Origin: a virus
Lineage: Duplodnaviria; Heunggongvirae; Uroviricota; Caudoviricetes
IMG/VR virus record: IMGVR_UViG_2537561830_000002
DNA: 52,488 bases
Direction: 5' to 3' (one strand)
A model generated the notes under the pieces. It saw nothing but the letters and a program-made list of their open reading frames with translations. It did not search any database and was not told where the DNA came from. Of this stretch, positions 1,446 through 52,488 are shown one piece after another (positions within the stretch are counted from its first letter, which is position 1; every line of letters begins with the position of its first letter). The position numbers and the translations under genes are program-made.

Positions 1446-1458
1446 TAAAATCAATAAG

Positions 1459-9012: not shown

Positions 9013-9014
9013 TT

Positions 9015-9503: not shown

Positions 9504-10156
9504 TGAGTAATAAATATTGCCAGGCGCTGGTGGAACTGCGGAACAAACCAGCCCATGAACTGAAGGAAGTGGGCGATCAGTGGCGCACGCCGGACAACAT
9601 TTTCTGGGGAATTAACACCCTGTTTGGCCCGTTTGTTCTGGATCTGTTCACTGACGGTGATAACGCCAAATGTGCTGCGTATTACACGGCGGAAGACAAC
9701 GCGCTGGCGCATGACTGGTCAGAACGCCTTGCGGAGCTTAAAGGTGCTGCCTTTGGTAATCCCCCATACAGCCGCGCCAGTCAGCATGAGGGGCAATACA
9801 TCACCGGCATGCGTTACATCATGAAGCATGCCAGTGCCATGCGTGATAAAGGCGGGCGCTATGTTTTCCTGATCAAAGCTGCCACCAGCGAAGTGTGGTG
9901 GCCGGAAGATGCAGATCATATTGCTTTTATTCGCGGGCGTATTGGTTTTGAACTGCCTGCCTGGTTTATCCCGAAGGATGAGAAGCAGGTGCCGACAGGC
10001 GCTTTCTTCGCTGGTGCTATTGCTGTTTTCGACAAGACCTGGAAGGGACCGGCAATCAGCTACATCGGGCGCGATGAACTTGAGGCATGTGGTGAGGCCT
10101 TTCTGGCGCAGGTTCGCCATCAGGCAGAAAAACTGGTCAGGGAGATGGCGGCATGA
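9503..10156 (+). CDS. orphan phage DNA N6-adenine methyltransferase
   Basis: FGNPPYS catalytic motif; TAATG overlap with the upstream gene; no partner endonuclease nearby. Confidence 0.85.
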   Translation: MSNKYCQALVELRNKPAHELKEVGDQWRTPDNIFWGINTLFGPFVLDLFTDGDNAKCAAYYTAEDNALAHDWSERLAELKGAAFGNPPYSRASQHEGQYITGMRYIMKHASAMRDKGGRYVFLIKAATSEVWWPEDADHIAFIRGRIGFELPAWFIPKDEKQVPTGAFFAGAIAVFDKTWKGPAISYIGRDELEACGEAFLAQVRHQAEKLVREMAA

Positions 10157-10479
10157 CGACGTTAACTCAATGCCAGCAGCAGGTGCTGGATATGCTGATT
10201 TCTTATCAGCAAGAACGTGGCTTCCCGCCAACCAATCAGGAGGTGGCAACCATGCTGGGATACCGTTCAGTGAATGCAGCGGTGGAGCATCTTCGCGCAC
10301 TGGAGAAAAAAGGCGTCATCACGATAAAGCGTGGCGTGGCCCGGGGGATAACGCTTCATACCGCGGTGAAGGACGACGACAGCGAGGCGGCCGGGATTAT
10401 CCGCGCACTGCTTGCTGGTGAGGAAAACGCCAGGCTGCGTGCAGCCCACTGGTTACATGAGAGGGGGCTGAAAGTATGA
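10153..10479 (+). CDS. LexA-like winged-helix DNA-binding protein (108 aa, no peptidase domain)
   Basis: CQQQVLDMLISYQQERGFPPTNQEVATMLGYRSVNAAVEHLRALEKKGVI resembles the LexA N-terminal domain; ATGA coupling. Confidence 0.65.
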   Translation: MTTLTQCQQQVLDMLISYQQERGFPPTNQEVATMLGYRSVNAAVEHLRALEKKGVITIKRGVARGITLHTAVKDDDSEAAGIIRALLAGEENARLRAAHWLHERGLKV

Positions 10480-35598: not shown

Positions 35599-36582
35599 AT
35601 GCATCGTATAGACACGAAAACCGCGCAGAAGGATAAGTTCGGCGCGGGTAAGAACGGTTTTACCCGTGGTAACCCCCAGACCGGCACGCCTGCCACCGAT
35701 CTGGATGATGACTACTTTGACATGTTGCAGGAGGAGCTTTGCAGCGTTGTGGAGGCGTCCGGTGCCAGCCTGGATAAGGGGCGGCACGACCAGCTACTTA
35801 CCGCGCTTCGCGCGCTGCTGTTAAGCCGCAAGAATCCGTTTGGCGATATCAAATCGGATGGCACGGTGAAAACGGCTCTCGAAAACCTTGGTTTGGGAGA
35901 AGCCAGATTCTCTGGTCGTTTGTTAAACACGAATATTTTTAAAAGCTCTGGAAAATATATCCCAACACCAGGGACAAAAAAGATAAGGGTCATTGCCTCT
36001 GGTGGCGGTGGCGGCGGCGGTGGGGTTCCTGAAACAACAGAAAATCAGCAGGCAACAGCCGGAGCTGGATTGAGCGGCGCATTTATTGAAGCATTTTTCG
36101 AGGTTGATAATGATTTCGAAGTCAACGTTATTATCGGTGCTGCAGGTAAAGGTGGGGGAGCCGGAAGAAATTCAGGTAGTGAAGGTGGCACAACTTATTT
36201 CGGTTCCATGATAACTGCACCTGGTGGTACAGGCGGTGGCGCGGGGGGAGCATCTGCAAACACATCATATATTCAGGGTATTTCATGGGGTGCCAGTCCG
36301 ACATCGTCCGGTACTGTACTAAGAGCATTTCGCTGTAGTGCAAAAACACCAGGAGCAATGGTTATCTCTGTTAAAGCTGTAGCAGGTGGTACCGGGGGGG
36401 ATACACCATTAGGTTCAGGCGGTATAGGTGGTGCAAGTTCTTCATCATTCAGCGGACGTGGTGGTGGTAAAGCTGAGGGCTTTGGTGCTGGCGGAGGCGG
36501 AGCCTGCGCACCTGCTGGAAGTGAGGCTCAATCGGGAGGTGACGGTGCCCCGGGAATAGTTATTGTTGAGGAGTATGCCTGA
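35599..36582 (+). CDS. tail fibre protein: conserved N-terminus fused to a Gly-rich variable C-terminus inside an invertible segment
   Basis: N-terminus [40 protein letters not shown]; composition shifts after codons LGLGEAR at the inverted repeat. Confidence 0.8.
35888..35908. repeat. left inverted repeat / recombination crossover site of the tail-fibre segment
   Basis: ttggtttgggagaagccagat is a perfect reverse complement of 37324-37344. Confidence 0.75.
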
Positions 36583-36848
36583 TGAGTAATTTTGCTCTGA
36601 TTGAACATGGCGTGGTGAAAAATATTATTATCTGGGATGGAGAGGGTGATTTATTCTCTAATTGCGAAATTATAAATATTGATCATATAGATGCAGGCGT
36701 CGGTTGGTTCTATTCTGACGGAGAGTTTATAGCACCACCGGAACCGGAAATGACTGAATATGATGTTGGTAATATCGACGCGGTGATGGAAGCAGATACC
36801 AGCACCGCGCCGGGGGTTATCTGGCCAGTTCCACCTGAGATGGTTTAA
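36582..36848 (+). CDS. putative tail fibre assembly/chaperone protein (U-like, 88 aa)
   Basis: ATGA-coupled to the tail fibre gene, inside the invertible segment. Confidence 0.5.
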   Translation: MSNFALIEHGVVKNIIIWDGEGDLFSNCEIINIDHIDAGVGWFYSDGEFIAPPEPEMTEYDVGNIDAVMEADTSTAPGVIWPVPPEMV

Positions 36849-37104
36849 TCTCAATCAGAATGGGTTCGCCCTTCTTGTTAACAGATATTTCCATTCCTTC
36901 AGGGATTTCAGATGCAGTAAAAAACCAGTTATCTTCTGGTAATTCCACAGCCCCGGTCACGTCATGAAGACCGGGGATTACTTCAGTCAAAGTAACAGGA
37001 TTAAACAGGCGCACAATAAACTCTCCAGGAAAAAGCACTTGTTGATGGTCTTCCGTCGTACATCTGGCAGCGGACATAAAAACCTGTATTACTGACCTGG
37101 TCAT
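36817..37104 (-). CDS. alternative U'-like ORF or frameshifted part of the alternative fibre end
   Basis: Minus-strand ORF converging on U and overlapping the alternative fibre ORF by about 100 nt in another frame. Confidence 0.35.
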   Translation of the reverse strand: MTRSVIQVFMSAARCTTEDHQQVLFPGEFIVRLFNPVTLTEVIPGLHDVTGAVELPEDNWFFTASEIPEGMEISVNKKGEPILIEIKPSQVELAR

Positions 37105-37344
37105 CCACGATCATTGAAACGTGAACGTTATTAGGTGTGGCTTCGTAATCTGTTCTTATTCTTTCCGCTATGCTGATAAAACGTGAAAGTTTAGGTAGTG
37201 CAATTGGATAAACGACTTTAGCCAGCCCATTATCATTGGAACCACCAGTTCCAAATACTTCTATTGCACCATCTGACCAGCGTATCCATGCACCATTGAC
37301 ATTAGCTCCTCGCTGAATGACATATCTGGCTTCTCCCAAACCAA
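37001..37344 (-). CDS. alternative tail-fibre C-terminal segment (Sv'-like), no own start codon
   Basis: Minus-strand ORF beginning at the right inverted repeat with the same GLGEAR junction as the plus-strand fibre. Confidence 0.6.
37324..37344. repeat. right inverted repeat / recombination crossover site
   Basis: atctggcttctcccaaaccaa; perfect 21-bp inverted partner of 35888-35908. Confidence 0.75.
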
Positions 37345-37410
37345 CGTTTATGAAAATGCAGAAATAACGAGCAAATGGCATCATTCCTGCTTTTGTCAGG
37401 GAGATCTACC

Positions 37411-37965
37411 ATGCTTATTGGCTATGTACGTGTGTCAACAAATGACCAGAACACAGATCTACAACGTAATGCGCTGAACTGTGCAGGATGCGAGCTGATT
37501 TTTGAAGACAAGATAAGCGGTACAAAGTCCGACAGACCAGGACTGAAAAAGCTGCTCAGGACATTATCGGCAGGTGACACGCTGGTGGTCTGGAAACTGG
37601 ACCGACTGGGGCGCAGTATGCGGCATCTTGTCGTGCTGGTGGAGGAGTTGCGCGAACGAGGCATCAACTTTCGTAGTCTGACGGATTCAATTGATACCAG
37701 TACCCCAATGGGGCGCTTTTTCTTTCATGTGATGGGTGCCCTGGCTGAAATGGAGCGTGAACTGATTGTTGAACGAACAAAAGCTGGACTGGAAGCAGCT
37801 CGCGCACAGGGACGAATTGGTGGACGTCGCCCCAAACTTACACCAGAACAATGGGAGCAGGCCGGACGATTAATTGCATCAGGCGTTCCTCGCCAGAAGG
37901 TGGCGATCATCTATGATGTTGGTATATCGACACTGTATAAGAAGTTTCCGGTCGGAGATAAATGA
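37411..37965 (+). CDS. serine DNA invertase (Pin/Gin/Hin family)
   Basis: MLIGYVRVSTNDQNTDLQRNAL...LVVWKLDRLGRS...MGRFFFHVMGALAEMERELIVERT; catalytic Ser in GYVRVST. Confidence 0.9.
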   Translation: MLIGYVRVSTNDQNTDLQRNALNCAGCELIFEDKISGTKSDRPGLKKLLRTLSAGDTLVVWKLDRLGRSMRHLVVLVEELRERGINFRSLTDSIDTSTPMGRFFFHVMGALAEMERELIVERTKAGLEAARAQGRIGGRRPKLTPEQWEQAGRLIASGVPRQKVAIIYDVGISTLYKKFPVGDK

Positions 37966-38025
37966 AACCGTAGCACGTCGTATGCAAGAAGATCGTGCTG
38001 CGGTTTATGCTTATCACTTAAAGAC

Positions 38026-38895
<870 letters not shown>

Positions 38896-38964
38896 CTAAG
38901 TCTTTGAATTTACATAGTACAAAAAAAATACTTTTCCTCATAATGTGAATTAATTTTATGTTTC

Positions 38965-39030
38965 GTTTGATGATTGGACCGGTCTCGAAAACCGGAGTAG
39001 GGGCAACTCTACCGGGGGGTCAAATCCCCC
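38965..39030 (+). pseudogene. 3' fragment (about 66 nt) of a tRNA-Ser(CGA)-like gene; att-site scar
   Basis: ggaccggtctcgaaaaccggagtaggggcaactctaccggggggtcaaatccccctctctccgcca matches the serU 3' half from memory with one T-loop substitution; no 5' half present. Confidence 0.7.
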
Positions 39031-39623
39031 TCTCTCCGCCACTTTATCAATGACTTATCTCCCGACTTCCCGCCTTGCTTTTCCTAAACAGAACAATCGT
39101 AGAATATTCTTGAAGGGTTAGATCGTCACTGTTTTCTGTTCGATACTGTGACATTCAGCACTTGATTCGCTATGGATCTGACAGGAAGGTTTCGAGCGAA
39201 AATCTGCAGTTATTCAGTCGTTTTCTTATCGGTCACCATTATTCTTTTAGACATTGATCCTACAAAGCTGCCGCAAAGTTGGTGGTGGGAACTGAAGTTG
39301 CGTAGAGAAGGGGTCAATACCCGGGGGCAAACATGGGCTGGCAAAAGTGTAGCGGTATTAGGCGCAGCTATTTAGCCTAGTTATGTTTTATGAAAACTTG
39401 ATATCATATAAGTGTCTTACTTATTGGCTGTAAATAAGTTTTTCCTAAGGAATTGTTTCTTGAGTATCATTTGTAACTGTAACGGAATTTATAATCCTTT
39501 GCTTTATTGTTACGGTATTTTTTATCACACCCTATTTTTAGTGGTTTTTTATACTGAAGTTTGGCAAAGTGAACTTTATATACATATACTTCATCCTGGT
39601 TTCAGTTAAATTGGGTGGATGAT

Positions 39624-40367
39624 ATGGCAACTACATGTTCAGTTATATTGATTTTGGAGTCCTTTGATGTTTATTTCGGAAAAGAGATTGTGTTTCTGGA
39701 GAGAGGTTCATCTGTACTTGTCGACTCTAGCTCTAGAGATTTTTTCCTGACATATCCTGAAAGAGTGATAGTGGCGGATTTTGGCGCTGAGTTTATTAGT
39801 CGCTATTTGAAAGCTAATAACTTAAGGGATATTTCTGATTGTAGGGAATATCCATCTTATTTAAAAATAAACTTTGCTGACTTCAGTTTAATTAAAGGAT
39901 TAATTAGTTGGGCTAATCACTGTGCTGAATACATAGAAATTTTTGATGAGTCTATTGCTTTTACATGTCTCTCTGCATTTTCTTCTGAAAAACAATTTGG
40001 AGTATTTCTGTTTGGATGTTTGAAAAGCACAGGGGCTAAAGTTAAAACGATTATTCATACGGATTTATCTGCACCATGGCGTCTTAAGGATATATCATCA
40101 AGATTATATCTCAGCGAAAGTTTACTAAAGAGGAAATTGAAAGAAGAGGGGGTATCATTCAGTAAGATCATACTTGATGAGAGGATGCAAATGGCTGAAT
40201 ATTTACTCAGCACTCGTTGTTATCCTATTAGTAAAGTAGCTAAGGTCTGTGGTTATGCCAGTGTCTCATACTTTACTTATGTATTTAGACGTTATTTTGG
40301 TGTTTCTCCAAGTCAATACTCTCAGAGGAGTTCAGAAAGTAAAATTCTTACTCACCAGGGAATCTGA
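39624..40367 (+). CDS. AraC/XylS-family transcriptional regulator
   Basis: C-terminal double HTH (ISKVAKVCGYASVSYFTYVFRRYFGVSPSQY); AT-rich; alternative GTG start at 39615. Confidence 0.8.
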   Translation: MATTCSVILILESFDVYFGKEIVFLERGSSVLVDSSSRDFFLTYPERVIVADFGAEFISRYLKANNLRDISDCREYPSYLKINFADFSLIKGLISWANHCAEYIEIFDESIAFTCLSAFSSEKQFGVFLFGCLKSTGAKVKTIIHTDLSAPWRLKDISSRLYLSESLLKRKLKEEGVSFSKIILDERMQMAEYLLSTRCYPISKVAKVCGYASVSYFTYVFRRYFGVSPSQYSQRSSESKILTHQGI

Positions 40368-40408
40368 TCATTGTTCTTGCCCCCTTATTTCCAGACAGGG
40401 GGTGTATC

Positions 40409-40636
40409 TTAAGTTAACGTTACCCGCTGACGTCGATATTCTCGCAGAGAGCGATAACCCAACGCACTGTGCGGATGGTTTTCATTGTAATGTTCGATCG
40501 CCACTGCAAGATTATGCAATGCCGTTCTTACATTCGGTTTCGGCATGAACGCGATGTAGTCTTCCTTCATCGTTTTCACGAACCTTTCTGCCATTCCATT
40601 ACTCTGAGGACTGCTGATTGCCCATGAGGAGTACAA
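40409..40636 (-). pseudogene. IS3-family transposase (OrfB) C-terminal remnant
   Basis: [17 protein letters not shown]...[20 protein letters not shown] is an integrase-core C-terminus; no N-terminal part. Confidence 0.7.
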
Positions 40637-40856
40637 TTAAACGGGTTAATCAGTTTCTCCATTTGAAAGAAAAAAGACTTCTGTACTGTTTGATATCACC
40701 GCTATTTTCTTATTTTCTGTGCAGGTCGTAGTGGGACAAAACTGAGACACATAAGGCCTCACAATGGCTTGCAAGGCTTTACATGTTTTGATGTGGTGGG
40801 ACGTGTGAGCGCAGTGTTGATGGGGTAATGCTTTGAATTAGAAGCGGATTCTTATA

Positions 40857-40903
40857 ATTCGTAATGCGAAGGTCGTAGGTTCGACTCCTATTATCGGCAC
40901 CAT
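40857..40903. repeat. attR core: 47-bp direct repeat of the thrW 3' end
   Basis: Exact copy of 1399-1445. Confidence 0.85.
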
Positions 40904-41543
40904 CAACAGAAAACCCCGTAAAAGCTGCATTGTTTAGCATGTTTATCTAACGGTTTGTAACTTCTGTTCTAACGTCCGCTATCACTTACAAACGCCTATA
41001 CGTTGTTATGGGCTTTGGTAGTGTAACACGTATGGGCGAGTAGTTCCCAGGCTCAACCTCGTAACAAGTTCCTTTGAAGCTGGAAGACGTGCCACCGTCT
41101 CTAAACCTTCTACCAAAACTCTTAGCAAGATGTTCCACACCTGGCGCGGTGTCCAATGATGCTACACGTCGTGAGACGTTGCAGAGGATAAACAGGCTAA
41201 ATGATGGGAAGAGTTTTAAGTGCAATAGTGGATCAAAGCCCACCTCTTCAAAACCTAACTTGATCGGGAAAGAATCAAGCTCTAGCACGGTTTCGTCCAC
41301 CGGAGTACAACGGGTGCCTGATAAGAGAAGAACTGCTAAGACTTCATAGCTTTTGTGAAAAAGCCCTTTTTAGTGGATACGCCTACGGCGCTTATTTTTT
41401 GGTATAACCATCAAAGGCGCTTTATGGCTCCTATTGTCTTGAAAATGTATCTTTACTTGTATTGTGTTTTATGCGTAGTCTCCCTGTGTAGTATGTAACT
41501 TGTTAATTTTCATATGAATACAGAGGCAACACGATGAAAAACA

Positions 41544-41696
41544 TTGCAGCTATAAAACGTAATAACCGCAAGATTCACGCTCGTAAGTTCCTGTCTACGC
41601 CAGAGGGAAAAGCCTGGCTAGAGCGTAAACAGCGAGAGAACGAAGAAAGAAAACTCCTTAGTGAGTTGAAATGGCTTAAGGATTGAATCACCAGTA
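41544..41696 (+). CDS. small basic ORF (50 aa), hypothetical
   Basis: AGAGG RBS; Lys/Arg-rich; below the ORF-track cutoff. Confidence 0.35.
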
Positions 41697-42236
41697 GGCG
41701 CATAACACATCCAGCGATCAAAGATGTGTTTATGCGCCTGATAGTGAAATTATTAAAGTTTTTTAGTTAATGTAGCCATTGCATGAACGATGATCGCTAG
41801 TGAATCGATTTTATCTCGAGGGGTAAAATAGATGAGGTATATGATGGTAACAATTACAGCTAAAGTAATTGTGGTTCTGCAGGTTTTTAAAATGGATGAG
41901 ATAAAGCGCATAGATACCCCCTATTGATTTAACAATAGCAAAGTATCATTTATTTTTTATTGCACGCAACATGCAAATTTTCACATATAATAGTTTACTA
42001 TTCACTTTGTATGGTGTCAACAAGATGATGTGTTGTTTTGTTTGATTTGTTCAAGATAATGTTTCATTTTCTCATCTATATAACTTGTGTTTTAGATAAT
42101 TTCACTAATTGTAAAAGTTACGTATTGCTTAATAGCTACCTTTTTATCTGAAATCGGCGCAGACGTGATCAATGTTTAACGCGAAGATCAGCGGCGTCAG
42201 GTCCACGCAGCGACAATTCTCAAATATCAGGAGGCA

Positions 42237-42788
42237 TTACGCTTCCTGCTCTTTCTTAATACGTTGCACTGTCTGTGTGCTGACACTGAAATCTTTTGCT
42301 ACGCTCCGAATTGATCCACCATTCGCGAGAGCGGCAACAATTCCCGCTCGATCAATTGCTTTTCCATTACCACGTTTTGCTATACGCCCAGCTGCCTTAG
42401 CTGCGGCGATCCCTTCACGTTGACGCTCAAGCATCATTTCACGTTCCATTTGTGCCACTGCTGCAAGCACTGTGAGCATCATATTCCCTGCGGGAGAGTT
42501 CTTCCCTGTCTTAAAGTCTTCTTTATGGAAATGCACAGACACGCCGCGCTCTGTTAATTGCTCAACCGTTGCCAGTAGGTCGGCTGTATTACGGCAAAGT
42601 CGATCAATGCTGTGAACATGCAAAACATCACCTTCACGCACATAGTTCATCATTGCCTCAAACTGTGGGCGCTGGGTATTCTTGCCTGACGCTTTATCTT
42701 CAAAGACTTTATCAAGAGTTACTCCAGCTAATTGACGGTCTGTGTTTTGTTGGACAGTCGATACCCTAATGTATCCAATATTAGCCAT
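42237..42788 (-). CDS. small serine recombinase (resolvase/invertase family, 183 aa)
   Basis: MANIGYIRVSTVQQNTDRQ... catalytic Ser motif; C-terminal HTH; GAAGGAAA RBS. Confidence 0.85.
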   Translation of the reverse strand: MANIGYIRVSTVQQNTDRQLAGVTLDKVFEDKASGKNTQRPQFEAMMNYVREGDVLHVHSIDRLCRNTADLLATVEQLTERGVSVHFHKEDFKTGKNSPAGNMMLTVLAAVAQMEREMMLERQREGIAAAKAAGRIAKRGNGKAIDRAGIVAALANGGSIRSVAKDFSVSTQTVQRIKKEQEA

Positions 42789-43296
42789 TTTCATTTTCCT
42801 TCTGTGTTGATTTGTGTGTAGTGATTATTGATCGTGTTGATTAGGTGTGTAAAGGACTTTTTTCACTACGAAATTCGAAGGTTTTTAGTGTGGTGATTTA
42901 GCCTGCTTTATCACTACACGTCTTGCATGAGAATCATGTGGTTACGTTTTGGTAAAATTAGCAAGCTATTAAATAGTGTGTTTATTTTGAAAAAATAATT
43001 TTTTGTTGCATTAAAGAAAACTTGTTCGACAGATAATAGATTGATTTTTAATCAATAATTTCTGATAGTGCTCTGTAAGCCGCATTACACAAGGATTTGC
43101 GAAAGTGATGTAAAAGTGAAGAAAGCTAACATTGCACTTTTTAAGCTACTTTTCATTGAATTTTTAGTATGGAATTACATAAGGATTAATCATCAATTAA
43201 TCTTGAATTTAAGCCTGTTTTAGATGTTTAATTTTGGTAGCAAGAAACACTTTTAGAAGATCATTGCACAGATGTTATGTGATAAATGGATGTAAC

Positions 43297-43349
43297 GGTA
43301 GGTCACTGTGAGCTAGGGGGTAGGTCACTGTGAGCTAGGGGGTAGGTCA
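43297..43349. repeat. 2.4 tandem copies of a 22-bp unit (iteron-like)
   Basis: ggtaggtcactgtgagctaggg repeated head to tail. Confidence 0.7.
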
Positions 43350-43486
43350 ATTTGAACCACAATAAGACTAACGATAATACTAATAATAAAACTAACTATT
43401 AAACTATATAATATAATTCTTTTTTATCTTTATAAGAATAATTATAGGGATACCCGTTAGGGAGTCTAACGACTATCCCTTAATCT

Positions 43487-43514
43487 ATTGGCATTCGCCA
43501 GAACCTTGCACAAG
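43487..43514. repeat. left arm of an imperfect 28-bp inverted repeat
   Basis: attggcattcgccagaaccttgcacaag matches the reverse complement of 43830-43857 at 25 of 28 positions. Confidence 0.5.
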
Positions 43515-43829
43515 TTAGACTGATACTTCTCATAACACATAGTTTTTTGTTTGTTGATGTTAGTTAGTAGATCTATGTTCGCTAATGCCGCTCACAACGA
43601 ATATGTAATCTACTATGTGCAAATAGCCTACGGCTTGCGTAAGGCTAAATAGTCTTGCGCTGTGCGCAGAACGATAATTAACTAACTACCATCTAACGAT
43701 TGAAATTTACTTGTGCAATAACCTGAGCGTAAGCGAATGGTTGTTAGTGTCTATGCGCTGTGCGCTTCAATAGTTCCATTGATGAGGCTTACGCCAATCT
43801 AACGATCATCAATCATCTAAAATAAATTT

Positions 43830-43857
43830 CTTGTGCAATGTTCTGGCGAATGCAATT
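43830..43857. repeat. right arm of the imperfect 28-bp inverted repeat
   Basis: cttgtgcaatgttctggcgaatgcaatt. Confidence 0.5.
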
Positions 43858-44147
43858 AGAGTAGCGTTACCCCTTTGGGGATGCTAACGCATAACTATAG
43901 ATCAACCATCAAACAGACAAAAAAGAAAAATATGGTTTAAAGATGTTAGGTAGTAGATGAGATTCTACCCCTTAAATAAGCCTCTGGCGAGCTAAACAGC
44001 CTCTACATAAGGGAATGTATTGTTTTTATCAAAACCTCGTTAGAACGCATTTTAGAGCGTTTTAGAGAATAAGGAAGAATAGGAGTACTCGTAAGAGCAC
44101 GAATTGCTCGTAAGTGCATGAAAAAGATCGATTTTTTTCGGAAATGG

Positions 44148-44182
44148 TATTGACAAACGTCTCTTTCTGTGCAATAATAGGT
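44148..44182 (+). promoter_or_regulatory. candidate sigma-70 promoter for the small-gene operon
   Basis: TTGACA, 17-nt spacer, AATAAT; about 120 nt upstream of the first ORF. Confidence 0.4.
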
Positions 44183-44302
44183 ATTAGAGGGACAGGAATA
44201 GATTCTTATCCTCTAAATAATTAAACCAATGCACCGCACTTTGAAGCCCAAGGCTTGCAAGGTGTCTTTTTCTTTTAACCAAATAGAATAGGAGGTTAAT
44301 TA

Positions 44303-44485
44303 ATGAAATATTTCACTCCACAGGATGTAGTAGAAGCCTGGAAACGTGGTGAGATCAACCGCTTTAAAGTAAGGATGTATAGAAACACCGCTCGCCGTTG
44401 TGGTTATCCAGAGCGTGAAAAATGCTTTGACGATGCACTAAAAATTATTGATGAACTGCGTAAGGCAGAAGCAGAGAAAGAATAA
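44303..44485 (+). CDS. hypothetical small protein (60 aa)
   Basis: Strong RBS TAGGAGG; AT-rich. Confidence 0.5.
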   Translation: MKYFTPQDVVEAWKRGEINRFKVRMYRNTARRCGYPEREKCFDDALKIIDELRKAEAEKE

Positions 44486-44506
44486 TAACAGGAGAAGGAG
44501 AAAACT

Positions 44507-44674
44507 ATGAGCGAAACCAAGAAACCAATTCCACGCACTTACCTACACGTTGACCCTGAAATTTTCAAGATTTTATTTGCTGAAGCCAAGAAAAGGCAAA
44601 TTATGGTCAGTGATTTGATGTTAGAAATCATTACTGAAGCAGCAGAGAACATCAAACAAAAAAAGGGTAAGTGA
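44507..44674 (+). CDS. small ribbon-helix-helix-like DNA-binding protein (55 aa)
   Basis: Beta-strand-like PRTYLHVD followed by two amphipathic helices; RBS GGAGAAGGAG; assignment by pattern only. Confidence 0.45.
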   Translation: MSETKKPIPRTYLHVDPEIFKILFAEAKKRQIMVSDLMLEIITEAAENIKQKKGK

Positions 44675-44725
44675 TCCTCATTCACTTTAGTAGCGCATTA
44701 AGCGTGATTTATAAGGAGATTTTTA

Positions 44726-45352
44726 ATGATAAACCAGCCAACTTTTACAAAACACTATAACACGTTTGATAATATATCAAAGATTTACTCTAATGAATTT
44801 CCAGAAGGTAAGGTTTTAGATTTATTGCACATTGTTCTTTATTATAGATTTCTTAGTTATCAGGAAAATGGTCTTAATTGTTATGAAAGTCACGAAACAT
44901 TAGCTAAGATTTTTAAGTCTTCACCATCAACAATTAAACGTAAGATAAACGATCTTAAAGAGATGGGATTATTAGAAACATCCCCACATCCTGATCCGTA
45001 TATTTCATCTTTGATTTACAATGCTCTCCCTCTCACAGATGCACATATTACTCCCCCAGGAGAGTCATCACTACCTGATCCTTCTGAGAAAGAAAACGAA
45101 TCTAATGAAATATTGAATGTTTCAGAAATCATCGTTGAAGAAGAAAAACAGGAATCAGAGTTCCCTGAGCGGCCCGAAATTTTTACTTGGCTTCTTTCCC
45201 TTGATAAGAAGAAACCACCGCACGAAGAAACAGAAGATTTTGTAAAACGAGCATTAGATTCAAAGAATATCTATCTTTGTGAAAATGATTTTGACTCTTT
45301 GATAATTGATCTCAAAAGTGAGAGCACAATATATGATTCACTACCCTTTTAA
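44726..45352 (+). CDS. hypothetical protein with winged-helix-like N-terminus and acidic C-terminus (208 aa)
   Basis: AAGGAG RBS; LAKIFKSSPSTIKRKINDLKEMGLLE HTH-like segment. Confidence 0.5.
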   Translation: MINQPTFTKHYNTFDNISKIYSNEFPEGKVLDLLHIVLYYRFLSYQENGLNCYESHETLAKIFKSSPSTIKRKINDLKEMGLLETSPHPDPYISSLIYNALPLTDAHITPPGESSLPDPSEKENESNEILNVSEIIVEEEKQESEFPERPEIFTWLLSLDKKKPPHEETEDFVKRALDSKNIYLCENDFDSLIIDLKSESTIYDSLPF

Positions 45353-45661
45353 GGAGAATAAATGGCTTATAACATCACTATAGGAAACAAAACTATTGAA
45401 ATAACTGAGAGCGGATACCACATTTTAAAAGCTATTTTGGAAATAGAGTTCTCACCGCCGACAGTGGTTAGCTTTTAGGGTTTAGCTCCTATCATCATTT
45501 TTTGGGATTTAACGCTTTCAATAATTGTGTAGGTGGTGCATCGGAAGTCGATCTGATGGCTCATTTAGAATGATACATTAGCTTCTAACAAACGTTCTAA
45601 CTAATAAAATGATGGGCGTATGTATAAGCGCCCAATGAAAATATTCAAAAAAGGAAAAATA

Positions 45662-45865
45662 ATGATTGGCTATATTCAAGAAACACAATTATTTCAGATG
45701 ATCCTGTCTGATGCAAAAAACTATGCTGAGTTAATCCGACTGGCAAAAGAAACAGAAGACTACGAAGCATTAGAGCGTTATCGTGATGAAGTGCTGACGC
45801 TCAAGACACCTTTTAACATCGTATTGAATATGATTAATGATGCATTACAAGGAGAAGCCGCATAA
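45662..45865 (+). CDS. hypothetical small protein (67 aa)
   Basis: AAGGA RBS; helical. Confidence 0.45.
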   Translation: MIGYIQETQLFQMILSDAKNYAELIRLAKETEDYEALERYRDEVLTLKTPFNIVLNMINDALQGEAA

Positions 45866-46173
45866 TGGAAGAAGATATTAGCAATGCAATGGAACAACTT
45901 TTAGATCTGACTATCTCACTACAAACAAGAATAAATCAAGCCTATTCAGATTTATGCGATTACACGCTCTCTCAATGCGTTATTAGCTTAATGAAGGTGA
46001 ATGTAAGCCTTGACGATTTTATCTCTCTGGTGAGCGATTTAGAGCTAATTGAGGACGATGCCAAGATGTGCACTCAAATCATCACAGACACCGCCAGCAC
46101 GTTAAAGGCTGCAAGTGAAGAGATTCAGCAATTAGTAGATGATTTAGCAAAAAGTGCTATTTCTTCTAAGTGA
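45865..46173 (+). CDS. hypothetical acidic protein (102 aa)
   Basis: TAATG coupling to the previous ORF. Confidence 0.5.
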   Translation: MEEDISNAMEQLLDLTISLQTRINQAYSDLCDYTLSQCVISLMKVNVSLDDFISLVSDLELIEDDAKMCTQIITDTASTLKAASEEIQQLVDDLAKSAISSK

Positions 46174-47077
46174 TAATGAAAATCATTTGCATTTATAACG
46201 ATTTCATTATATAATGATATTAGGGGTAGATAAAAAGGTTTTGACTGGTGTTAATCCTTCTACTGTCATAAATCCCTGCATATGGAAGGTGATAGCCTCA
46301 AAGGTTGAGTGGCATTAACCTCTAACAAATATTACCTTCCATCTCTCAAGAAGTTTTAGAATAATCATAACTCCCTCTTTGATTGTTGATTGTTTCTACG
46401 TTGTGTTGATGAATGTTGTTAGGCATTGTGCTTAATTTTGATAAAAGCGGGTAGGTGTTATCTCCTTGCCCTTCCCGCTCTTATTTTTCATCTATGCTTA
46501 TCCTAAAGCTCCTTATTTTGTCAGAAAACATTAAAGAGCCTTACACTGATAGTTATATTTTATAACTATTTACTAACATCATTAAACTATTATTTAATGA
46601 CAGAAGTTAGTAACAGAATAATCTATTAAGTTGTTGTCAAAAACAATCATCTGCATAGCGTTAGCCGCAAGCAGAGAGAGTTTAGCTAAGAATGGTGCAA
46701 TAAACTTTGGAAATATTGATAGCAAAACGGGTTTTATAGAATGCGGATCTATAAGCTTTGGTTGTAAAAACGATTTTCTGAAACGGTAGATTACTGTTGG
46801 TGTAGTTAATCATTATTAAAAATTTAATCTGTGAGTAGATTGGAATAGTGATTCCTTAAAATCTGACTGGTGCATCCACACCATGAAAGATAGCGGTTGG
46901 CCACCGCGCCCCGAATAGATATTCCTGATTGATTCCGCATGTTTTCCTAAGAGCATGTTTTCAGGAGTATCTATTCACCCTTTAAGCATATCATCAAGTA
47001 TATTTAAAAAGTGTATTTGCTGATATGTTTAATCCTCTTATAGTTTAACTTATCAATTATGTAATTGCCCGCACGTT

Positions 47078-47127
47078 AAAGCCCCTTTGCTGGTCAGAAT
47101 TAACCTCTTACGGCATTGGGGCTTTTT
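47078..47127 (+). terminator. candidate terminator (GC stem plus T-run, long loop)
   Basis: aaagcccc...ggggcttttt. Confidence 0.35.
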
Positions 47128-47157
47128 ATTTGTCTGGCACTAACAGGAACGTTATTT

Positions 47158-47355
47158 ATGAAACAAGAAATGATTATCAGCAAAGACGGGGAAACGATGA
47201 TTGTTAGTGATGAAAACCTCATTAAGGTTGCCGCACTGTTGGGAATTACTCCCGAAAGTCTTCGTTCTACCACTGCTCAATTATTTAAATCGGCTGATGC
47301 GGTTAGTCTTGCTGATGCCCTTAAATCTAAAATTAAACAACTGAAAGGAAAATAA
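47158..47355 (+). CDS. hypothetical small protein (65 aa)
   Basis: AGGA RBS; first gene of a compact plus-strand cluster. Confidence 0.45.
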   Translation: MKQEMIISKDGETMIVSDENLIKVAALLGITPESLRSTTAQLFKSADAVSLADALKSKIKQLKGK

Positions 47356-47359
47356 TCTT

Positions 47360-47743
47360 ATGGCTAACCCATATGGAAAATTAAAAGCAGTGAATGCGGA
47401 TAACTCCCGTTCACGCTGTAAGGTAGTAGCTTACGCTGCTGATCCAGTGCTGCAAGATCGCCTCGTCAAACTGGCTTCACCTCTCACTGACGATCTTATT
47501 GTCGGGGCTTTGCTGAAAGCCGATGGCACCAAAGCAACAACCGCATCTGATATTGCTCACATAGTAGTTGAACCGGCTTATGAAGGACAGGAAAGCGTAG
47601 TGGTTGCACATCCTACTTTCGTTATTCTGGCTGAAGATGGGATTGAATTTAACAGCATGGAAAAGGCAAGTGTTATTGCAAAACTGCAATCTCTCGGCTT
47701 TGTAATTGCTAGTTATGAAGAACTTGCGATCCCTACGACTTAA
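47360..47743 (+). CDS. hypothetical phage-like protein (127 aa)
   Basis: Tight spacing with neighbours; AAAGGAAA RBS. Confidence 0.5.
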   Translation: MANPYGKLKAVNADNSRSRCKVVAYAADPVLQDRLVKLASPLTDDLIVGALLKADGTKATTASDIAHIVVEPAYEGQESVVVAHPTFVILAEDGIEFNSMEKASVIAKLQSLGFVIASYEELAIPTT

Positions 47744-47757
47744 CAAGGAAAATAATA

Positions 47758-48789
47758 ATGAATGATTTATCAACATATTTTGGCGTTAATACTGCGGTAG
47801 TAACTCCATTTGCTTATGAGAATGCACTTAATACCCTGATTACTAATCTCGATCTGTTCGATGTGCAATATCATACAGAAAACAGCATTCTTCTTACCGA
47901 CCTGATTGATCAGTTTGTGCAGGTAGCTGGGGAAACCTCACCTTACGCTCAAAGCGACTGGAACGCCTCTAAACGTCAGGAATGGTCAAACAAACTTTTC
48001 CAGATGAAACACGTCGGCAGTATTAACGCTGTTACTTCTCGTGACCTGGAACAATACAGCCGCCAATATCCAAACCGTTCTGATGCTATGCTGGTAGCGG
48101 TTAATGATTTCTCTGAGGCTCATTACCGTTCACACGCAAACCGTGTTGAAGTGGATCTGATTACCGCGCTGCTGGGCCTGAAAGTTGAATCTGAATATGC
48201 CGGACAAGGTGATCTCGACTTCCTCGACGGTCAGGCTAAAACCACGGTACCCGCTATCGACTTTGCATCGACAACTGTTAACCCGTTCCTTGCTATTCGT
48301 AAAGCGGTGCGCTTACAGAGTGAAAAGCTGGGGTCTGGTCTTGCTGCAAAGCGAACTGGTGTAATTATCTTTGCTGCTGGCGCTGCTGCTGATGGTTTGT
48401 CATCTAACCCGCTGATCAGTGACATGGTGAAATATGCAGGCGATGCGAGTGCTACGGCCCTGTTTACCCGTATGGTTGATTCTAACCCAGCCTATGACTC
48501 TTTCCAGATTGGTGGGATCACTGTTATTGATGTGTCAATGTTTCCTGAGATTGTTGCTCACATCGGAGAGAACGGTTTCGCAATTGTTCCGGTAATGGAT
48601 AAAGCGGCACAGTGTTACCAGCTTCATAGCGGCGTTGGTGTGCGTCATGCTGAGTTAGGTCAAGATGCCGTGTTGCATCACCAATATCTAATCAAGGATG
48701 AATTCCAATTCCCATCTGTGGTTACTGAGACATCTTATCTGCCAGTAAACAACATTCCGCAAGCTATCATCTTCGGATCTGCTGCGTAA
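47758..48789 (+). CDS. putative phage structural protein (major capsid or major tail-like, 343 aa)
   Basis: Size, composition and position upstream of a tape-measure-like gene; no direct family match recognised. Confidence 0.5.
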   Translation: MNDLSTYFGVNTAVVTPFAYENALNTLITNLDLFDVQYHTENSILLTDLIDQFVQVAGETSPYAQSDWNASKRQEWSNKLFQMKHVGSINAVTSRDLEQYSRQYPNRSDAMLVAVNDFSEAHYRSHANRVEVDLITALLGLKVESEYAGQGDLDFLDGQAKTTVPAIDFASTTVNPFLAIRKAVRLQSEKLGSGLAAKRTGVIIFAAGAAADGLSSNPLISDMVKYAGDASATALFTRMVDSNPAYDSFQIGGITVIDVSMFPEIVAHIGENGFAIVPVMDKAAQCYQLHSGVGVRHAELGQDAVLHHQYLIKDEFQFPSVVTETSYLPVNNIPQAIIFGSAA

Positions 48790-48940
48790 TAAAGCGTTAA
48801 TAGACGATTCCCCATCGGGGCAATAAGGGTAAAGGGATTAACTAACCTGTAGGCGCAAATACAGTAACGAATCTCTTTGCCCTTTTTGTTTTTCTACTGT
48901 CTACAAACCCAAATAAAAATATATATGTGAGAGAAAACCA

Positions 48941-49138
48941 ATGAATACAGAAAACCCACAATCCTTTATTCTTAAGGCTGTAAAAGAACTGGCAGCTATT
49001 AGCGATGACTCAATAATCAATGTCAGTGCCTTATGCAGAATGCTTTCAATTGATGCAAATAATGTGCGGCAGCGTGTGTTTCAGACTGGGTGCAGCACTT
49101 TTGAGGCAATCCAATATTATTGCTCTAAAAAACAATAA
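48941..49138 (+). CDS. hypothetical small protein (65 aa)
   Basis: GAGAG RBS. Confidence 0.4.
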   Translation: MNTENPQSFILKAVKELAAISDDSIINVSALCRMLSIDANNVRQRVFQTGCSTFEAIQYYCSKKQ

Positions 49139-49172
49139 CAAACAATAATCATAATACAGGGAAACAATTAAC

Positions 49173-51074
49173 ATGTTAGAAATTACCGCCTCACGAATTA
49201 GTAATGTTGTGACATTTACCACTGATTTCAAGAGCTTACAGAAAGCTAAGAATGAAGTGGATAAGCTACAAAAGAAGATGCAGGGGATCAAACCTGTGCA
49301 AGTGGCGGCAGCACGTCAGAAAGATTTACAGAGGCTGGGAAAAGAGATTCAGCGCCAGCATGATCAGCATGTTAAGCGGGCTGTTAAATCTGAGACACAG
49401 GCATCTAAAGCCAGCACTAAACAGAAGCTACAGGAAGCTAAAAACCTCGCTAAAGCACAGGCTAAACAAGCCTCAATTGCTGAAAAGGCAGAGATCAAGC
49501 GCCTTGCATCATATCGCCAGTTACAAGGCATCAAGAACAATTCCCGCTATGGCGAAGGGATGGATATTAAGAAATATCACGATGCTCTACGTTACATTAA
49601 GGAACAAACCCGCCTCTATGAATCCGGCGCTATATCGCAAGCGAAGATGAATGCCCTGATCCGTGACCGCATCACATTAGAAAGACGAGCCGCAGCCGCT
49701 GCTACGCGTCGTAATGCTGCCGCTGGGGGTGTATATCCAGTTACTTCTAAGAAGCTCCACAAAGAAGGTGTTAGCGGCGGTGGCGCGTTAATGATGGGCG
49801 GTGTTGGTGGCATTATCGGCGGCGCTGCCGTTGGCTTAGGAAGTATGGCTGTATCTGCTGGAATGGAAAAAGCCCGTGAACGTATGGAATTGCAGAAGAT
49901 GAGCGATCTGGTAGGCGCAGACTCCAACCAGGTGGCTGCAATGGTTAATTGGGGGAGGGCAAACGGTGTATCAAGTGCAAGCGTGGACAAGACCACTGAC
50001 AATATCAAAGACTTAAACGAACGCATTGGTCATCAAAGCCGAACTGCTGAATGGGATAGTAAGAAAAAAGAGTGGCGAGGCGGGGAAGGATCATTAAATG
50101 ATATTCAGAATGCCTTTGCATGGAACAAAGATAAGATAGCTTCCTACCAGGGGCGACCGCTGCAACTCCTGCAAGACGTGGTGAGAGAAGGTGAACGCCG
50201 AGGAATGACTAAAGAAGCCATCATATCCCTGATCGAACCATTAGCAGACGATGCCAGCCATTATCTCAAGATGTTTTCCCGTGATGGGGAAGAGTTCCGT
50301 AAAACGATGGTTGATATGGAAAACAACGGGCAGCTACTGACAGAAGCACAGAAAGAGCAATATCGCGCAGCTAACAAGACAGCTACAGCCTTTGACCGTC
50401 TGACAGATGGACTATCGAATCAGGCTATTTTGGGCTTCTTTGATGGCATAGCCAACATGCCAGCACTCAAACCGGAAGAAAGCAAAGCCTTACAGAATGC
50501 AGCTTATGGTGTTGGTGCATCGTTCGGGGATTTGGCTAAACAAGGCGCTGTATTACTGACCTCTATGACTTCTTACGGGAATCAAATCACAAGCTGGATT
50601 AATAAACATCTTAGCCGTGGTGAGAATGATAACCGACCTGAGACACAAAAGGTTATGGACGCTGTTACAGATGGGGAATGGTCGCCATCAACGATTATCA
50701 ATGAAGGTATTCGTTATGCAACTGGACTCGATACGAAAGATGTAGGGCGTATTGTGCGCGGTGAGGAAACACAGTCCGGCGTTCCAGGGTGGTGGACTGA
50801 TTTAATTAATGGCAATGCTAACAGCTACGGATCAACCCTTGTTGCACGTAAAGCAGAAGCCTATCAGCCGACTGTAAGCCTACAACGTCAATACGCAACT
50901 CCTGTTAACGTGAATGCACAGGTTACGGTGCCGAGTGATATGATCTCTGTTAACGTCATCCCTAACGGTCCCGGCTTTCAGGATTTAATCCGCACTGAGA
51001 TCAGAGCGAACAACAATCAGTTTAGTTCGAATCTGATTCTTAGCACGTTGTCAGGACAGAGTAGCGTTAACTAA
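49173..51074 (+). CDS. tape-measure-like protein (633 aa)
   Basis: Long helical Lys/Ala/Gln-rich N-terminus, Gly-rich hydrophobic block GGGALMMGGVGGIIGGAAVGLGSMAVSAG. Confidence 0.6.
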   Translation: MLEITASRISNVVTFTTDFKSLQKAKNEVDKLQKKMQGIKPVQVAAARQKDLQRLGKEIQRQHDQHVKRAVKSETQASKASTKQKLQEAKNLAKAQAKQASIAEKAEIKRLASYRQLQGIKNNSRYGEGMDIKKYHDALRYIKEQTRLYESGAISQAKMNALIRDRITLERRAAAAATRRNAAAGGVYPVTSKKLHKEGVSGGGALMMGGVGGIIGGAAVGLGSMAVSAGMEKARERMELQKMSDLVGADSNQVAAMVNWGRANGVSSASVDKTTDNIKDLNERIGHQSRTAEWDSKKKEWRGGEGSLNDIQNAFAWNKDKIASYQGRPLQLLQDVVREGERRGMTKEAIISLIEPLADDASHYLKMFSRDGEEFRKTMVDMENNGQLLTEAQKEQYRAANKTATAFDRLTDGLSNQAILGFFDGIANMPALKPEESKALQNAAYGVGASFGDLAKQGAVLLTSMTSYGNQITSWINKHLSRGENDNRPETQKVMDAVTDGEWSPSTIINEGIRYATGLDTKDVGRIVRGEETQSGVPGWWTDLINGNANSYGSTLVARKAEAYQPTVSLQRQYATPVNVNAQVTVPSDMISVNVIPNGPGFQDLIRTEIRANNNQFSSNLILSTLSGQSSVN

Positions 51075-51147
51075 GTTTAACGATAACTAATAATAAAGCG
51101 GGGGCAATATTTATTGCTTTCCGCTCATTACACAAGGATTAATATAA

Positions 51148-51439
51148 ATGGTTATCAAAGAAAGTCAGATCAACAGCACATCTAACATTAATACATCTAA
51201 CAGCAAGGTTAAATCTGATAACGGATTTGCCATTATATGTAGCAACCTGAATAACGAAAATGCATCAACGATAGCCAGTTATAAAGCTATTACTTTTGAC
51301 GCTGTTCCGGCAACTAAGGTTTCACGTTCTGCCGATGTTACATCGTATCCTGTGCAGGATGGTAATGATGTATCTGATAATGTCAGGATCAAGAATAATA
51401 AACTTATGCTTTCAGGCATTATTACAGAAACACCATTAG
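51148..51439 (+). pseudogene. tail-protein-like gene truncated by IS5 insertion
   Basis: ORF runs into the IS5 left end at 51440; only about 97 codons of native sequence. Confidence 0.5.

Positions 51440-52488
<1,049 letters not shown>

Follow-up and report, generated by a model that had tools for sequence, protein, structure and literature searches.

A putative serU attachment-site scar beside an AraC-family regulator gene in a thrW-integrated prophage

Results and Discussion

Analysis of the window (the whole stretch of DNA under study, 52,488 nt of IMG/VR record IMGVR_UViG_2537561830_000002) indicates that the block at the attR-proximal cargo end of its thrW prophage is a four-part mosaic, in which known cargo lies behind a scar of the lambda-bio type; we put the probability of this reading at about 85%. 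The scar is probably the leftover right-hand attachment site (attR) of an ancestor phage that once resided in serU, as judged from its match to prophages that are found there. The regulator gene next to it is predicted to be the working part of the block. Regulator, insertion sequence and phenomenon are all known already, and the system is not of a new kind. The block is genuine and instructive as to phage history, yet ordinary.

Prophage frame

The prophage is bounded by thrW, as a preliminary description of the sequence had concluded: a tRNA-Thr(CGT) gene lies at 1369-1444 and an exact 46-nt repeat of its end at 40857-40902. The element is apparently complete and about 39.5 kb long, with an HK97-type head and a Mu-like tail, for which we take SfV and e14 to be the appropriate comparison. 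Apart from the integrase at 1459-2622, no tyrosine integrase was identified in the prophage stretches scanned, and the thrW-type attP arm at the opposite end is 97% identical to PhiR29 phages from 40617 and 97-99% identical to the attP region of SfI, SfII, SfIV and SfV from 40732. Towards the right end lie the invertible tail-fibre segment (35883-37349), which has the opposite orientation in a sister assembly, a DNA invertase gene, and a GIY-YIG gene that matches the anti-phage defence model PD-T4-3 over its full length (PADLOC, E 2.4e-140) and is the last gene before the serU-type attR. The features are as follows.

1369 to 1444, plus strand: thrW, tRNA-Thr(CGT) (ARAGORN); its last 46 nt (1399-1444) are the attL core
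1459 to 2622, minus strand: tyrosine integrase of the thrW-type att/int module (Pfam Phage_integrase, E 3.5e-48)
3163 to 39319, no strand assigned: prophage body common with MB15-type serU prophages (blastn 94-98%; MB15 annotation)
37411 to 37965, plus strand: Pin-type DNA invertase (Pfam Resolvase and HTH_7; phrog_125 DNA invertase)
38026 to 38799, minus strand: GIY-YIG nuclease gene (Pfam LEM-3_GIY-YIG; PADLOC PD-T4-3)
38800 to 38975, plus strand: putative P arm of the former serU attR (the genuine attR of the MB15 serU prophage has this sequence on its left)
38976 to 39041, plus strand: 3' part of serU, putative former att core (65/66 to K-12 serU; not called as a tRNA)
39042 to 39319, plus strand: B' flank, 278 bp of the host interval between serU and yodB (collinear with native loci)
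39320 to 39623, plus strand: phage cargo DNA preceding the AraC gene (cargo-region matches, promoter scan, GC)
39624 to 40367, plus strand: intact AraC-family regulator gene, 247 aa (HTH_AraC/HTH_18; identity to Sakai ECs_0287)
40372 to 40622, minus strand: remnant of ISEc48 (IS3 family), 3' end of the transposase gene (rve_3; Sakai repeat_region annotation; four-way alignment)
40623 to 40856, plus strand: left arm of the thrW-type attP (identity to PhiR29 and Sf phages)
40857 to 40902, plus strand: attR core, which repeats the final 46 nt of thrW exactly

The tRNA-Ser fragment and its flank

Positions 38976-39041 (66 nt) align without gaps to positions 25-90 of the K-12 tRNA-Ser(CGA) gene serU with 65 of 66 identities, the single mismatch being a T to G change that affects the first T of the T-loop (39019). 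The preliminary description had recognised this partial 3' tRNA-Ser(CGA) with one T-loop change and had located it correctly about 1.8 kb inside attR (its 3' end is 1816 bp inside the 40857-40902 repeat), but had set its start at 38965, 11 nt too far to the left. The anticodon stem-loop and everything 3' of it are intact; a complete cloverleaf with both acceptor strands and the D arm is missing, and the conserved T-loop (T54, psi55) is altered by the change at 39019. ARAGORN makes no call at 38976-39041 and Rfam yields only tRNA-like matches below the gathering score, as expected for a gene that lacks its 5' 24 nt; no other RNA was found by Rfam within 38000-41500. The T-loop substitution is a feature of some copies only, the T being retained in Sakai Sp1 and in the phages ev099 and mEp332, with GGTC or GGGC in other copies. 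The tRNA-Ser piece is a scar, which yields no tRNA and plays no part in integration here.

Homology to the serU locus does not stop at the tRNA end but extends 278 bp beyond it, up to 39319, a continuation that had been missed at first reading. BLAST, which had been suggested earlier as a way to find the native context of the fragment, traces fragment and flank to the serU downstream locus, with 344 nt in all at 97.4% identity to K-12 (E 2e-163). These 278 bp make the piece an attR junction, composed of phage arm, core and host flank, rather than a bare core. The flank is collinear with the native locus in K-12, SerU-LTIIb, MB15 and strain 10035776-3, and serU attL sites (606R7, MB15) lack it on the P' side, where the sequence after the tRNA is wholly different. 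On the other side of the core, the P arm close to it is a decayed copy of further tRNA sequence. Two other origins for the flank and its end were considered and rejected. The 278 bp are not a piece of a long attP identity block, as the attL sites of serU phages diverge directly after the tRNA end, and the break at 39319 is not a natural presence/absence polymorphism of yodB, as the yodB-less strain 10035776-3 follows K-12 for about 150 bp beyond it.

The same arrangement is found as a genuine attR in MB15, whose serU prophage has the identical GIY-YIG gene, left arm, 66-nt core and flank and then runs on into yodB, with the matching attL at an intact serU (in the order mtfA, intact serU, cargo genes, int). 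Window positions 3163-39319 are 94-98% identical to MB15 loci L021 and L010 (blastn blocks) and the match ends exactly at 39319; the homology is unbroken through early genes, tail genes, pin, GIY-YIG gene, fragment and flank. Positions 1445-3162 are without counterpart in the MB15 prophage, the att/int module being the only difference over the compared body. This unbroken homology to a serU-integrated prophage indicates that the scar is the lineage's own former attR, and the comparison indicates that the thrW prophage lineage descends from a serU-integrating phage by a swap of the att/int module. It also supports the part of the preliminary description that envisaged imprecise exit from a serU-type site, with true serU-yodB host DNA after the core and the arm of a serU prophage before it. 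The alternative offered there, a nested fossil of another integrative element, is not borne out by the collinearity with MB15 through fragment and flank.

Prophages that do reside in serU fall into two types. MB15-type prophages share the 66-nt core and GIY-YIG arm with the scar, whereas lambda-like serU prophages (SerU-LTIIb, Sakai Sp14, 10035776-3) have a 62-nt core and an arm like that of ev099 and mEp332. A chimeric query for genuine serU lysogens is covered to 100% by MB15 and RMDEC332 and to at least 80% in 7 genomes, and at least 13 genomes carry the MB15-type attL. In serU prophages of both types the flank runs on into yodB or zinT, and they possess a partner attL at an intact serU together with a serU-type integrase, in contrast to the window, in which the flank ends after 278 bp and the prophage has no serU-type integrase. 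The window element is bounded by thrW repeats, with its integrase on the thrW side, and near-identical loci showed no further copy of the serU core; given these bounds and the missing partner core, the serU attR is a relic rather than a working site.

The junction, its spread and a proposed history

The host flank is joined illegitimately to phage DNA at 39319|39320, with TCAxT microhomology at the join. The 56 nt directly to the right (39320-39375) are phage cargo-region DNA: in PPompW prophages, intergenic stretches of the effector-cargo regions match them at 91% identity, and phage 2B8 has a similar sequence. The result is host DNA beside an att site, inside a phage, with a non-homologous distal join to phage DNA. 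Comparison of attR-proximal regions among relatives, as proposed in the preliminary description, revealed that the junction is constant apart from IS-truncated copies: it recurs in Sakai Sp1, in the isolated phages ev099, mEp332 and PhiR70_1 (lambda-like isolates being among its carriers), in 10 assembly contexts and at 36 IMG/VR loci, and 524 of the 5,426 complete E. coli genomes (about 10%) contain it. The records of ev099, mEp332 and PhiR70_1 are of phages propagated on E. coli K-12 or C, and these packaged genomes hold core, flank, patE (the regulator gene; see below) and IS remnant. A patE copy without the scar, which would represent the state before capture, was not found. None of the titles and abstracts found in a literature search on serU, thrW, prophages and O157 describes the scar. 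A 67-aa ORF that spans the junction (39172-39375) has no Pfam match and was treated as spurious.

The following history is proposed. The ancestor phage would have integrated in serU, yielding an attR of phage arm, 66-nt core and host flank. A single illegitimate recombination, of the kind that aberrant excision produces in lambda-bio phages, would then have fixed this former attR in the phage genome: position +278 of the host flank would have become joined to the phage cargo DNA that precedes the AraC gene. That gene, with its own AT-rich upstream region, is the second part of the mosaic. A copy of ISEc48, now dead, presumably inserted once right behind the regulator gene, and integration at present would proceed via the thrW-type attP arm and core, with the matching integrase at the other prophage end. 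We infer both the mechanism and the order of these recombination events. Aberrant excision and illegitimate recombination of a resident serU prophage with another phage give an identical product.

Specialised transducing phages of the lambda-bio type carry a P.B' att site plus adjacent host DNA. The block is similar in that a phage arm, an att core and right-side host DNA lie inside a phage genome, the original P' side is lost, host and phage DNA are joined illegitimately and the structure is present in packaged genomes. It differs in that just 278 non-coding bases were captured, without a host gene, and in that the site is the tRNA gene serU instead of attB-lambda. Furthermore, lambda-bio is a rare laboratory variant, whereas the scar is fixed and widespread, and has since moved onto thrW and lambda att/int modules. 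It is probably a clean natural case of a specialised-transduction-type scar that has gone to fixation and spread over at least three att/int modules (serU as the origin, thrW and the lambda site). Roughly a tenth of complete E. coli genomes carry it, and one of the prophages that contain it is the intensively studied Sp1 of O157:H7.

Two left-arm types, one lambda-like and one as in the window, adjoin the identical core, flank and patE, and therefore at least one later exchange at the core has to be assumed. In lambda-like carriers the different arm ends at the core edge. This bears on whether the scar has been retained for use, as a portable serU attB or as a 340-bp patch of chromosomal homology for serU phages or RecA, which we consider unlikely. 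The intact anticodon stem-loop and 3' sequence would suit such a role, as would the fact that two unrelated arms stop exactly at the core, but any recombination would be expected to place arm boundaries there, as homology ends at the core edge. Draft contig L013 joins the native left side of serU to patE and the thrW right side. In O157 Sakai, a pair of 337-bp inverted repeats, separated by about 2.36 Mb, consists of the scar and of the attR that Sp14 has at serU. Both observations hint at recombination between scar and serU. Against this, L013 is a single short-read draft that could contain a misjoin over the 340-bp repeat, its junction recurs in none of the complete genomes, and an arm-core-P' chimeric query, which would reveal an MB15-type phage in the scar or a tandem lysogen, matched no genome. 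In addition, the T-loop is decaying in several lineages, which indicates that selection does not maintain the tRNA part as such. If the scar were nevertheless not inert, serU phages or RecA would recombine with thrW and lambda-site prophages, shuffling arms exactly at the core; now and then such recombination would also invert the roughly 1.7-2.4 Mb of chromosome that separate the scar from serU. The 340-bp repeat may also mislead assemblies or drive rearrangements.

The AraC-family regulator

The gene at 39624-40367 encodes an AraC-family protein with the double helix-turn-helix domain that AraC/XylS members have at the C-terminus, HTH_AraC (E 1.3e-16) and HTH_18 (E 9e-16) both scoring above their cut-offs. 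Its GC content of 31-37%, and of 31-38% in the upstream region, against 42-50% in neighbouring DNA, agrees with the AT-rich AraC-family gene of the preliminary description. A promoter scan places a promoter-like site at 39561-39590. The protein is identical at 246 of 247 positions to ECs_0287, the only AraC gene in the Sakai thrW prophage Sp1. We take island OI-8 (CP-933H) of EDL933 to correspond to Sp1. With this presumed correspondence, the identity to ECs_0287 and the placement of patE in a review, the regulator can be identified, as a sequence-based assignment, as PatE. The review places patE (z0321) in OI-8 of EDL933 and describes PatE as a prophage AraC-like activator, reported in EDL933 to turn on the acid-resistance genes gadE and hdeAB and also reported to reduce LEE expression (PMC10877973); the regulator may act in the present strain in the same way. 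PsrA, PsrB and PatE resemble one another by description, in being prophage-borne, small members of the AraC/XylS family with a reported action on gadE/hdeA (PMC10877973). A scan of one genome per species found no relatives of PatE. patE moves within a unit of about 1.9 kb.

The preliminary description had regarded the gene as a captured host-type regulator, and it is conceivable that it was a chromosomal neighbour of serU in some strain, taken along with the flank by specialised transduction. The regulator does lie directly behind captured host DNA, and it is similar to YdeO and GadX, which, like it, are small AraC/XylS regulators and belong to the GAD acid-resistance system. The NCBIfam models nevertheless score far below their cut-offs (YdeO 147 bits versus 348, E 6e-43; GadX 111 bits versus 500, E 7e-32), which indicates that the regulator is not an equivalog of either, and the protein is a full-length member of the phage protein family phrog_1450. 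A chimeric query found intact serU joined to patE in none of the complete E. coli genomes, native flanks in every lineage examined continue past +278 with other sequence, and the initial 56 nt to the right of the join have their matches in cargo regions of other phages. Draft contig L013 does hold intact serU, flank and patE together, but has the thrW attR and yagU to the right of patE, and must therefore be a secondary recombinant or a misassembly. An origin of the gene as a serU neighbour is thus very improbable, and the claim of host capture is unsupported.

The insertion sequence remnant and comparison with Sakai Sp1

The ISEc48 remnant abuts the stop codon of the regulator gene. ORF 40409-40636 on the minus strand contains an rve_3 integrase-core domain, and the homologous sequence in O157 Sakai is annotated 'ISEc48, IS3 family, partial', in line with the truncated IS3-family transposase noticed earlier. 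Only about 250 bp, coding for the C-terminal rve_3 part, are left of the element, which thus lacks a full transposase and the pair of terminal repeats. A four-way alignment of right ends revealed that end points differ among carriers and that truncation goes deeper in the window than in Sakai or ev099.

The lower GC of the AraC/IS segment relative to its surroundings, its occurrence in several phage backbones and the fact that partial tRNA 3' ends mark the borders of integrated elements would all be compatible with a separate small integrative element, consisting of the AraC gene and the IS, which inserted in the thrW prophage and left the tRNA-Ser piece as its att repeat. Both a second copy of the serU core and an extra integrase are missing from the block, however, and a partner repeat with a serU-type integrase around the AraC/IS segment was seen at none of about 60 loci. 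From the fragment's left arm leftwards, the prophage is collinear with a phage truly integrated in serU, and the DNA behind the fragment is that of the host and not of an element; the fragment is therefore phage backbone and not an insert, which makes a separate element very improbable. For annotators, this would mean that the tRNA-Ser fragment does not mark an island boundary here. That the likeness to tRNA-Ser is due to chance, whether in a conserved piece of attP or otherwise, or is an assembly artefact, is a negligible possibility: tRNA finders make no call at the fragment, but the match runs on for 278 bases into the native serU downstream region, giving 344 nt at 97.4%, and hundreds of complete genomes, as well as phage isolates that have been sequenced, share the structure.

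At thrW, Sakai Sp1 has the same order as the window (pin, GIY-YIG gene, serU scar, AraC regulator, ISEc48 remnant, attR) and is 97.3% identical to window positions 37329-40622, the tRNA fragment carrying no annotated feature in the Sakai record. In contrast to the apparently complete prophage of the window, Sp1 is a degraded remnant of 10.6 kb with a pseudogenised integrase. Its IS remnant is about 220 bp longer than that of the window and, unlike the window copy, its scar has an unaltered T-loop T, along with two changes at the edge of the core.

The serU remnant and its host flank

The sole tRNA called in the window by ARAGORN is thrW, tRNA-Thr(CGT), at 1369-1444; the last 46 nt of this gene recur as an exact second copy at 40857-40902, and a tyrosine integrase gene lies directly inside thrW at 1459-2622(-). 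The thrW repeats and the adjoining integrase thus indicate a thrW-repeat-bounded prophage of about 39.5 kb, the right end of which is arranged as follows.

Features at the right end of the prophage, in order
37411-37965, +, Pin-type invertase gene
38026-38799, -, GIY-YIG gene
38976-39041, +, tRNA-Ser fragment
39624-40367, +, AraC-family gene, AT-rich
40409-40636, -, 75-codon ORF with an rve_3 integrase-core domain
40857-40902, +, thrW attR core

The tRNA-Ser fragment noticed in the preliminary description is real, although its start had been placed 11 nt too far left: alignment to K-12 serU (tRNA-Ser CGA) puts it at 38976, and 65 of the 66 bases of 38976-39041 match serU positions 25-90, the lone mismatch being at 39019, where the T-loop has G in place of its first T. 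No tRNA was called within these 66 nt by any tRNA finder. The BLAST search proposed for its native context led to the serU locus, as the match runs ungapped for a further 278 bases past the CCA end, up to 39319 (344 nt in total, 97.4% identity to K-12, E 2e-163), and this 344-nt segment is present at serU in 5,425 of 5,426 complete E. coli genomes. The K-12 counterpart of the flank is the serU-yodB intergenic region. Sequence past the tRNA end in the attL of two serU-integrated prophages, 606R7 and MB15, bears no relation to the 278-bp flank, thus indicating that the flank is host DNA and no part of the phage attP. Judged by these alignments, the fragment represents an attR-type junction that includes its host flank (38976-39319, referred to here as the scar).

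Relation to serU prophages and the junction at 39319

A chimeric query ran from the GIY-YIG end of the window through its left arm, core and flank, and then switched to the native K-12 sequence leading into yodB. This query was covered end to end at 100% by strains MB15 and RMDEC332, and at 80% or more by seven genomes. In MB15 a complete prophage has this arrangement at its right end, and at its left end mtfA, intact serU, three cargo genes, an integrase and an excisionase; attL of this type occurs in at least 13 genomes. The left arm and 66-nt core of the window are the same as in the MB15 attR, and the two prophages share 94-98% identity from 3163 to exactly 39319, a collinearity that speaks against the earlier proposal of a nested element. 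The difference is confined to the att/int module, which indicates that the window phage is an MB15-type serU phage with a changed integration module. The window module (39320-40902 plus 1445-3162) comprises the AraC-family gene patE, an IS remnant, the thrW attP, the integrase and a small ORF, whereas that of MB15 comprises a P' arm, the three cargo genes, a serU-type integrase and the excisionase; the left edge of the exchange falls within host DNA. The MB15 cargo genes (8183-10434 of locus L021, between the attL core and the integrase) are unannotated, and correspond in position and orientation to patE when the window phage is drawn as a circle.

Past 39319, native flanks continue differently in each lineage examined, including one that lacks yodB. 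In PPompW prophages, intergenic DNA of the effector-cargo regions (EspM, NleG) shares 91% identity with the first 56 nt to the right of the join (39320-39375), and the lambda-like phage 2B8 has a similar site some 400 bp away from its integrase gene. Phage DNA thus borders the captured host DNA on either side, with a short TCAxT microhomology at 39319|39320, and such bracketing is the signature of aberrant excision of the lambda-bio type or of an equivalent illegitimate event. Imprecise excision, one of the origins first suggested for this block, is thus supported, but the capture of a host regulator is not, as the DNA beyond 39319 matches phage cargo regions.

The regulator and the spread of the scar

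GC content around the AraC gene is 31-37%, compared with 42-50% in adjacent DNA. Its product carries HTH_AraC/HTH_18 domains, is a full-length member of the phage family phrog_1450, and scored far under the cut-offs of the YdeO and GadX models; a promoter-like site is predicted at 39561-39590. The protein is identical at 246 of 247 residues to ECs_0287, the sole AraC gene of Sp1, the O157:H7 Sakai prophage at thrW, which we take to be OI-8/CP-933H of EDL933. A 2024 review (PMC10877973) locates PatE (z0321) in O-island 8 of EDL933 and characterizes it as an AraC-like, prophage-encoded protein that activates gadB, gadC, gadE and hdeAB and negatively regulates LEE genes. The IS piece derives from the 3' end of an ISEc48 transposase gene; in all carriers its near side lies 4-5 bases past the regulator stop codon, and its far side is cut at varying points (40622 in the window; about 220 bp further in Sakai, phage ev099 and APEC). 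From 40617 on, the window matches the attP arms of thrW phages, PhiR29 and then SfI, SfII, SfIV and SfV.

Core, flank, junction, AraC gene and left IS end are also found together in Sp1, and the core-to-IS unit lies between the tail-fibre assembly gene and lambda-type attP/int in the sequenced phages ev099 (where the lambda core GCTTTTTTATACTAA is visible), mEp332 and PhiR70_1. The unit also occurs, truncated by IS1, in an APEC prophage at the lambda site, and in 10 assembly contexts and 36 IMG/VR loci. Of 5,426 complete genomes, 524 have the scar-patE junction, and O157:H7 accounts for many of these; the only patE copies that lack the scar are truncated by IS5 or IS1. This distribution points to a single event that has spread widely. 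Two left-arm types adjoin the core: the window/MB15 arm (66-nt core, with core-edge variants) and a lambda-like arm (62-nt core), which is homologous to the attR arm of prophage SerU-LTIIb and shares 99% identity with the corresponding arm of the serU prophage of strain 10035776-3. The flank allele of the scar shares 99.4% identity with the native 10035776-3 flank, whereas the attR flank of MB15 itself is of the K-12 type, which weakly suggests that a lambda-like serU phage made the first capture. Recombination within the core or proximal flank would then have brought in the window-type arm at a later stage.

IS hits recur in the scar and the region upstream of patE: a 1.3-kb insertion with a 13-bp overlap lies within the tRNA fragment (L047, 2055-3393), an IS5-family element cuts at the equivalent of 39372 (L035, ~3470-3750), and IS1 cuts at the equivalent of 39420 or 39609 (L037 and L003, the latter from APEC 102026). 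On IMG/VR contig L038 (1-505 and 1706-5280), the full copy is preceded some 3 kb upstream by a second, partial one, made up of the 5' end of GIY-YIG, the arm, the core and 100 bp of the flank, and inverted tail-fibre sequence separates the two.

PatE, ISEc48 and the Sp1-type right end are already known, as are aberrant-excision scars and tRNA att remnants. The serU scar carries no annotation in the Sakai record examined and is not mentioned in the titles and abstracts returned by our literature search. It is a further example of a known phenomenon, for which the imprecise-excision reading is supported and can now be stated precisely.

Fate of the scar

No tRNA can be made from the scar, and several lineages show a decaying T-loop in it (GTTC to GGTC to GGGC). 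These changes recur beside a G run, at 39019 in the window and at equivalent positions in L026, L027, L044, L047-L053 and L057, including one carrier of the lambda-like arm; possible causes are separate mutation events, copies recombining with one another, or sequencing error in the homopolymer.

With its anticodon stem-loop complete and 340 bp of homology to the chromosome, the scar could in principle serve as a secondary attB or a recombination patch, although we consider this unlikely. One draft contig (L013; GCA_025320605.1, ABIJDX010000016.1, 4262-7900) reads asnT, mtfA, intact serU, flank, patE, thrW attR, yagU, ykgJ, ecp, with scar-type alleles along the full extent of the flank, and reflects either inversion between native serU and a thrW-prophage scar or short-read misassembly across the 340-bp repeat. 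In Sakai, the Sp1 scar (L007, 18458-18800) and the attR of the serU prophage Sp14 (L060, 7868-8204) form 337-bp inverted repeats of ~97% identity, ~2.36 Mb apart. However, the L013 junction comes from this single contig, where a misjoin is possible, and is absent from all 5,426 complete E. coli genomes searched, none of which has an MB15-type phage integrated into the scar. Sp14 encodes EspJ, TccP and PchC.

Neighboring elements

The GIY-YIG gene beside the scar matches the single-gene anti-phage defence model PD-T4-3 over its full length (PADLOC, E 2.4e-140), so that the att-proximal end holds a predicted defence gene besides the regulator. L018, a near-identical sister prophage (identity 99.8-100%), has the tail-fibre segment beside pin (35883-37349) inverted, with an overlap of 26 bp at each end; this suggests that the Pin inversion switch is active. 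In E. coli MS 69-1, a separate 64-kb record (NZ_CP146678.1) duplicates the prophage right end of the chromosome record NZ_CP146675.1, and could represent an assembly duplicate or else DNA that is excised or replicating. Beyond the thrW attR, 40903-52488 is a further island that is unlike the usual K-12 or Sakai neighbors and probably represents a second element in tandem at thrW.

Features of the island to the right of the thrW attR
42237-42794, -, serine recombinase
44726-45352, HTH protein
47758-48789 and 49173-51074, two large ORFs with no Pfam match
extending past the window end, IS5-like transposase
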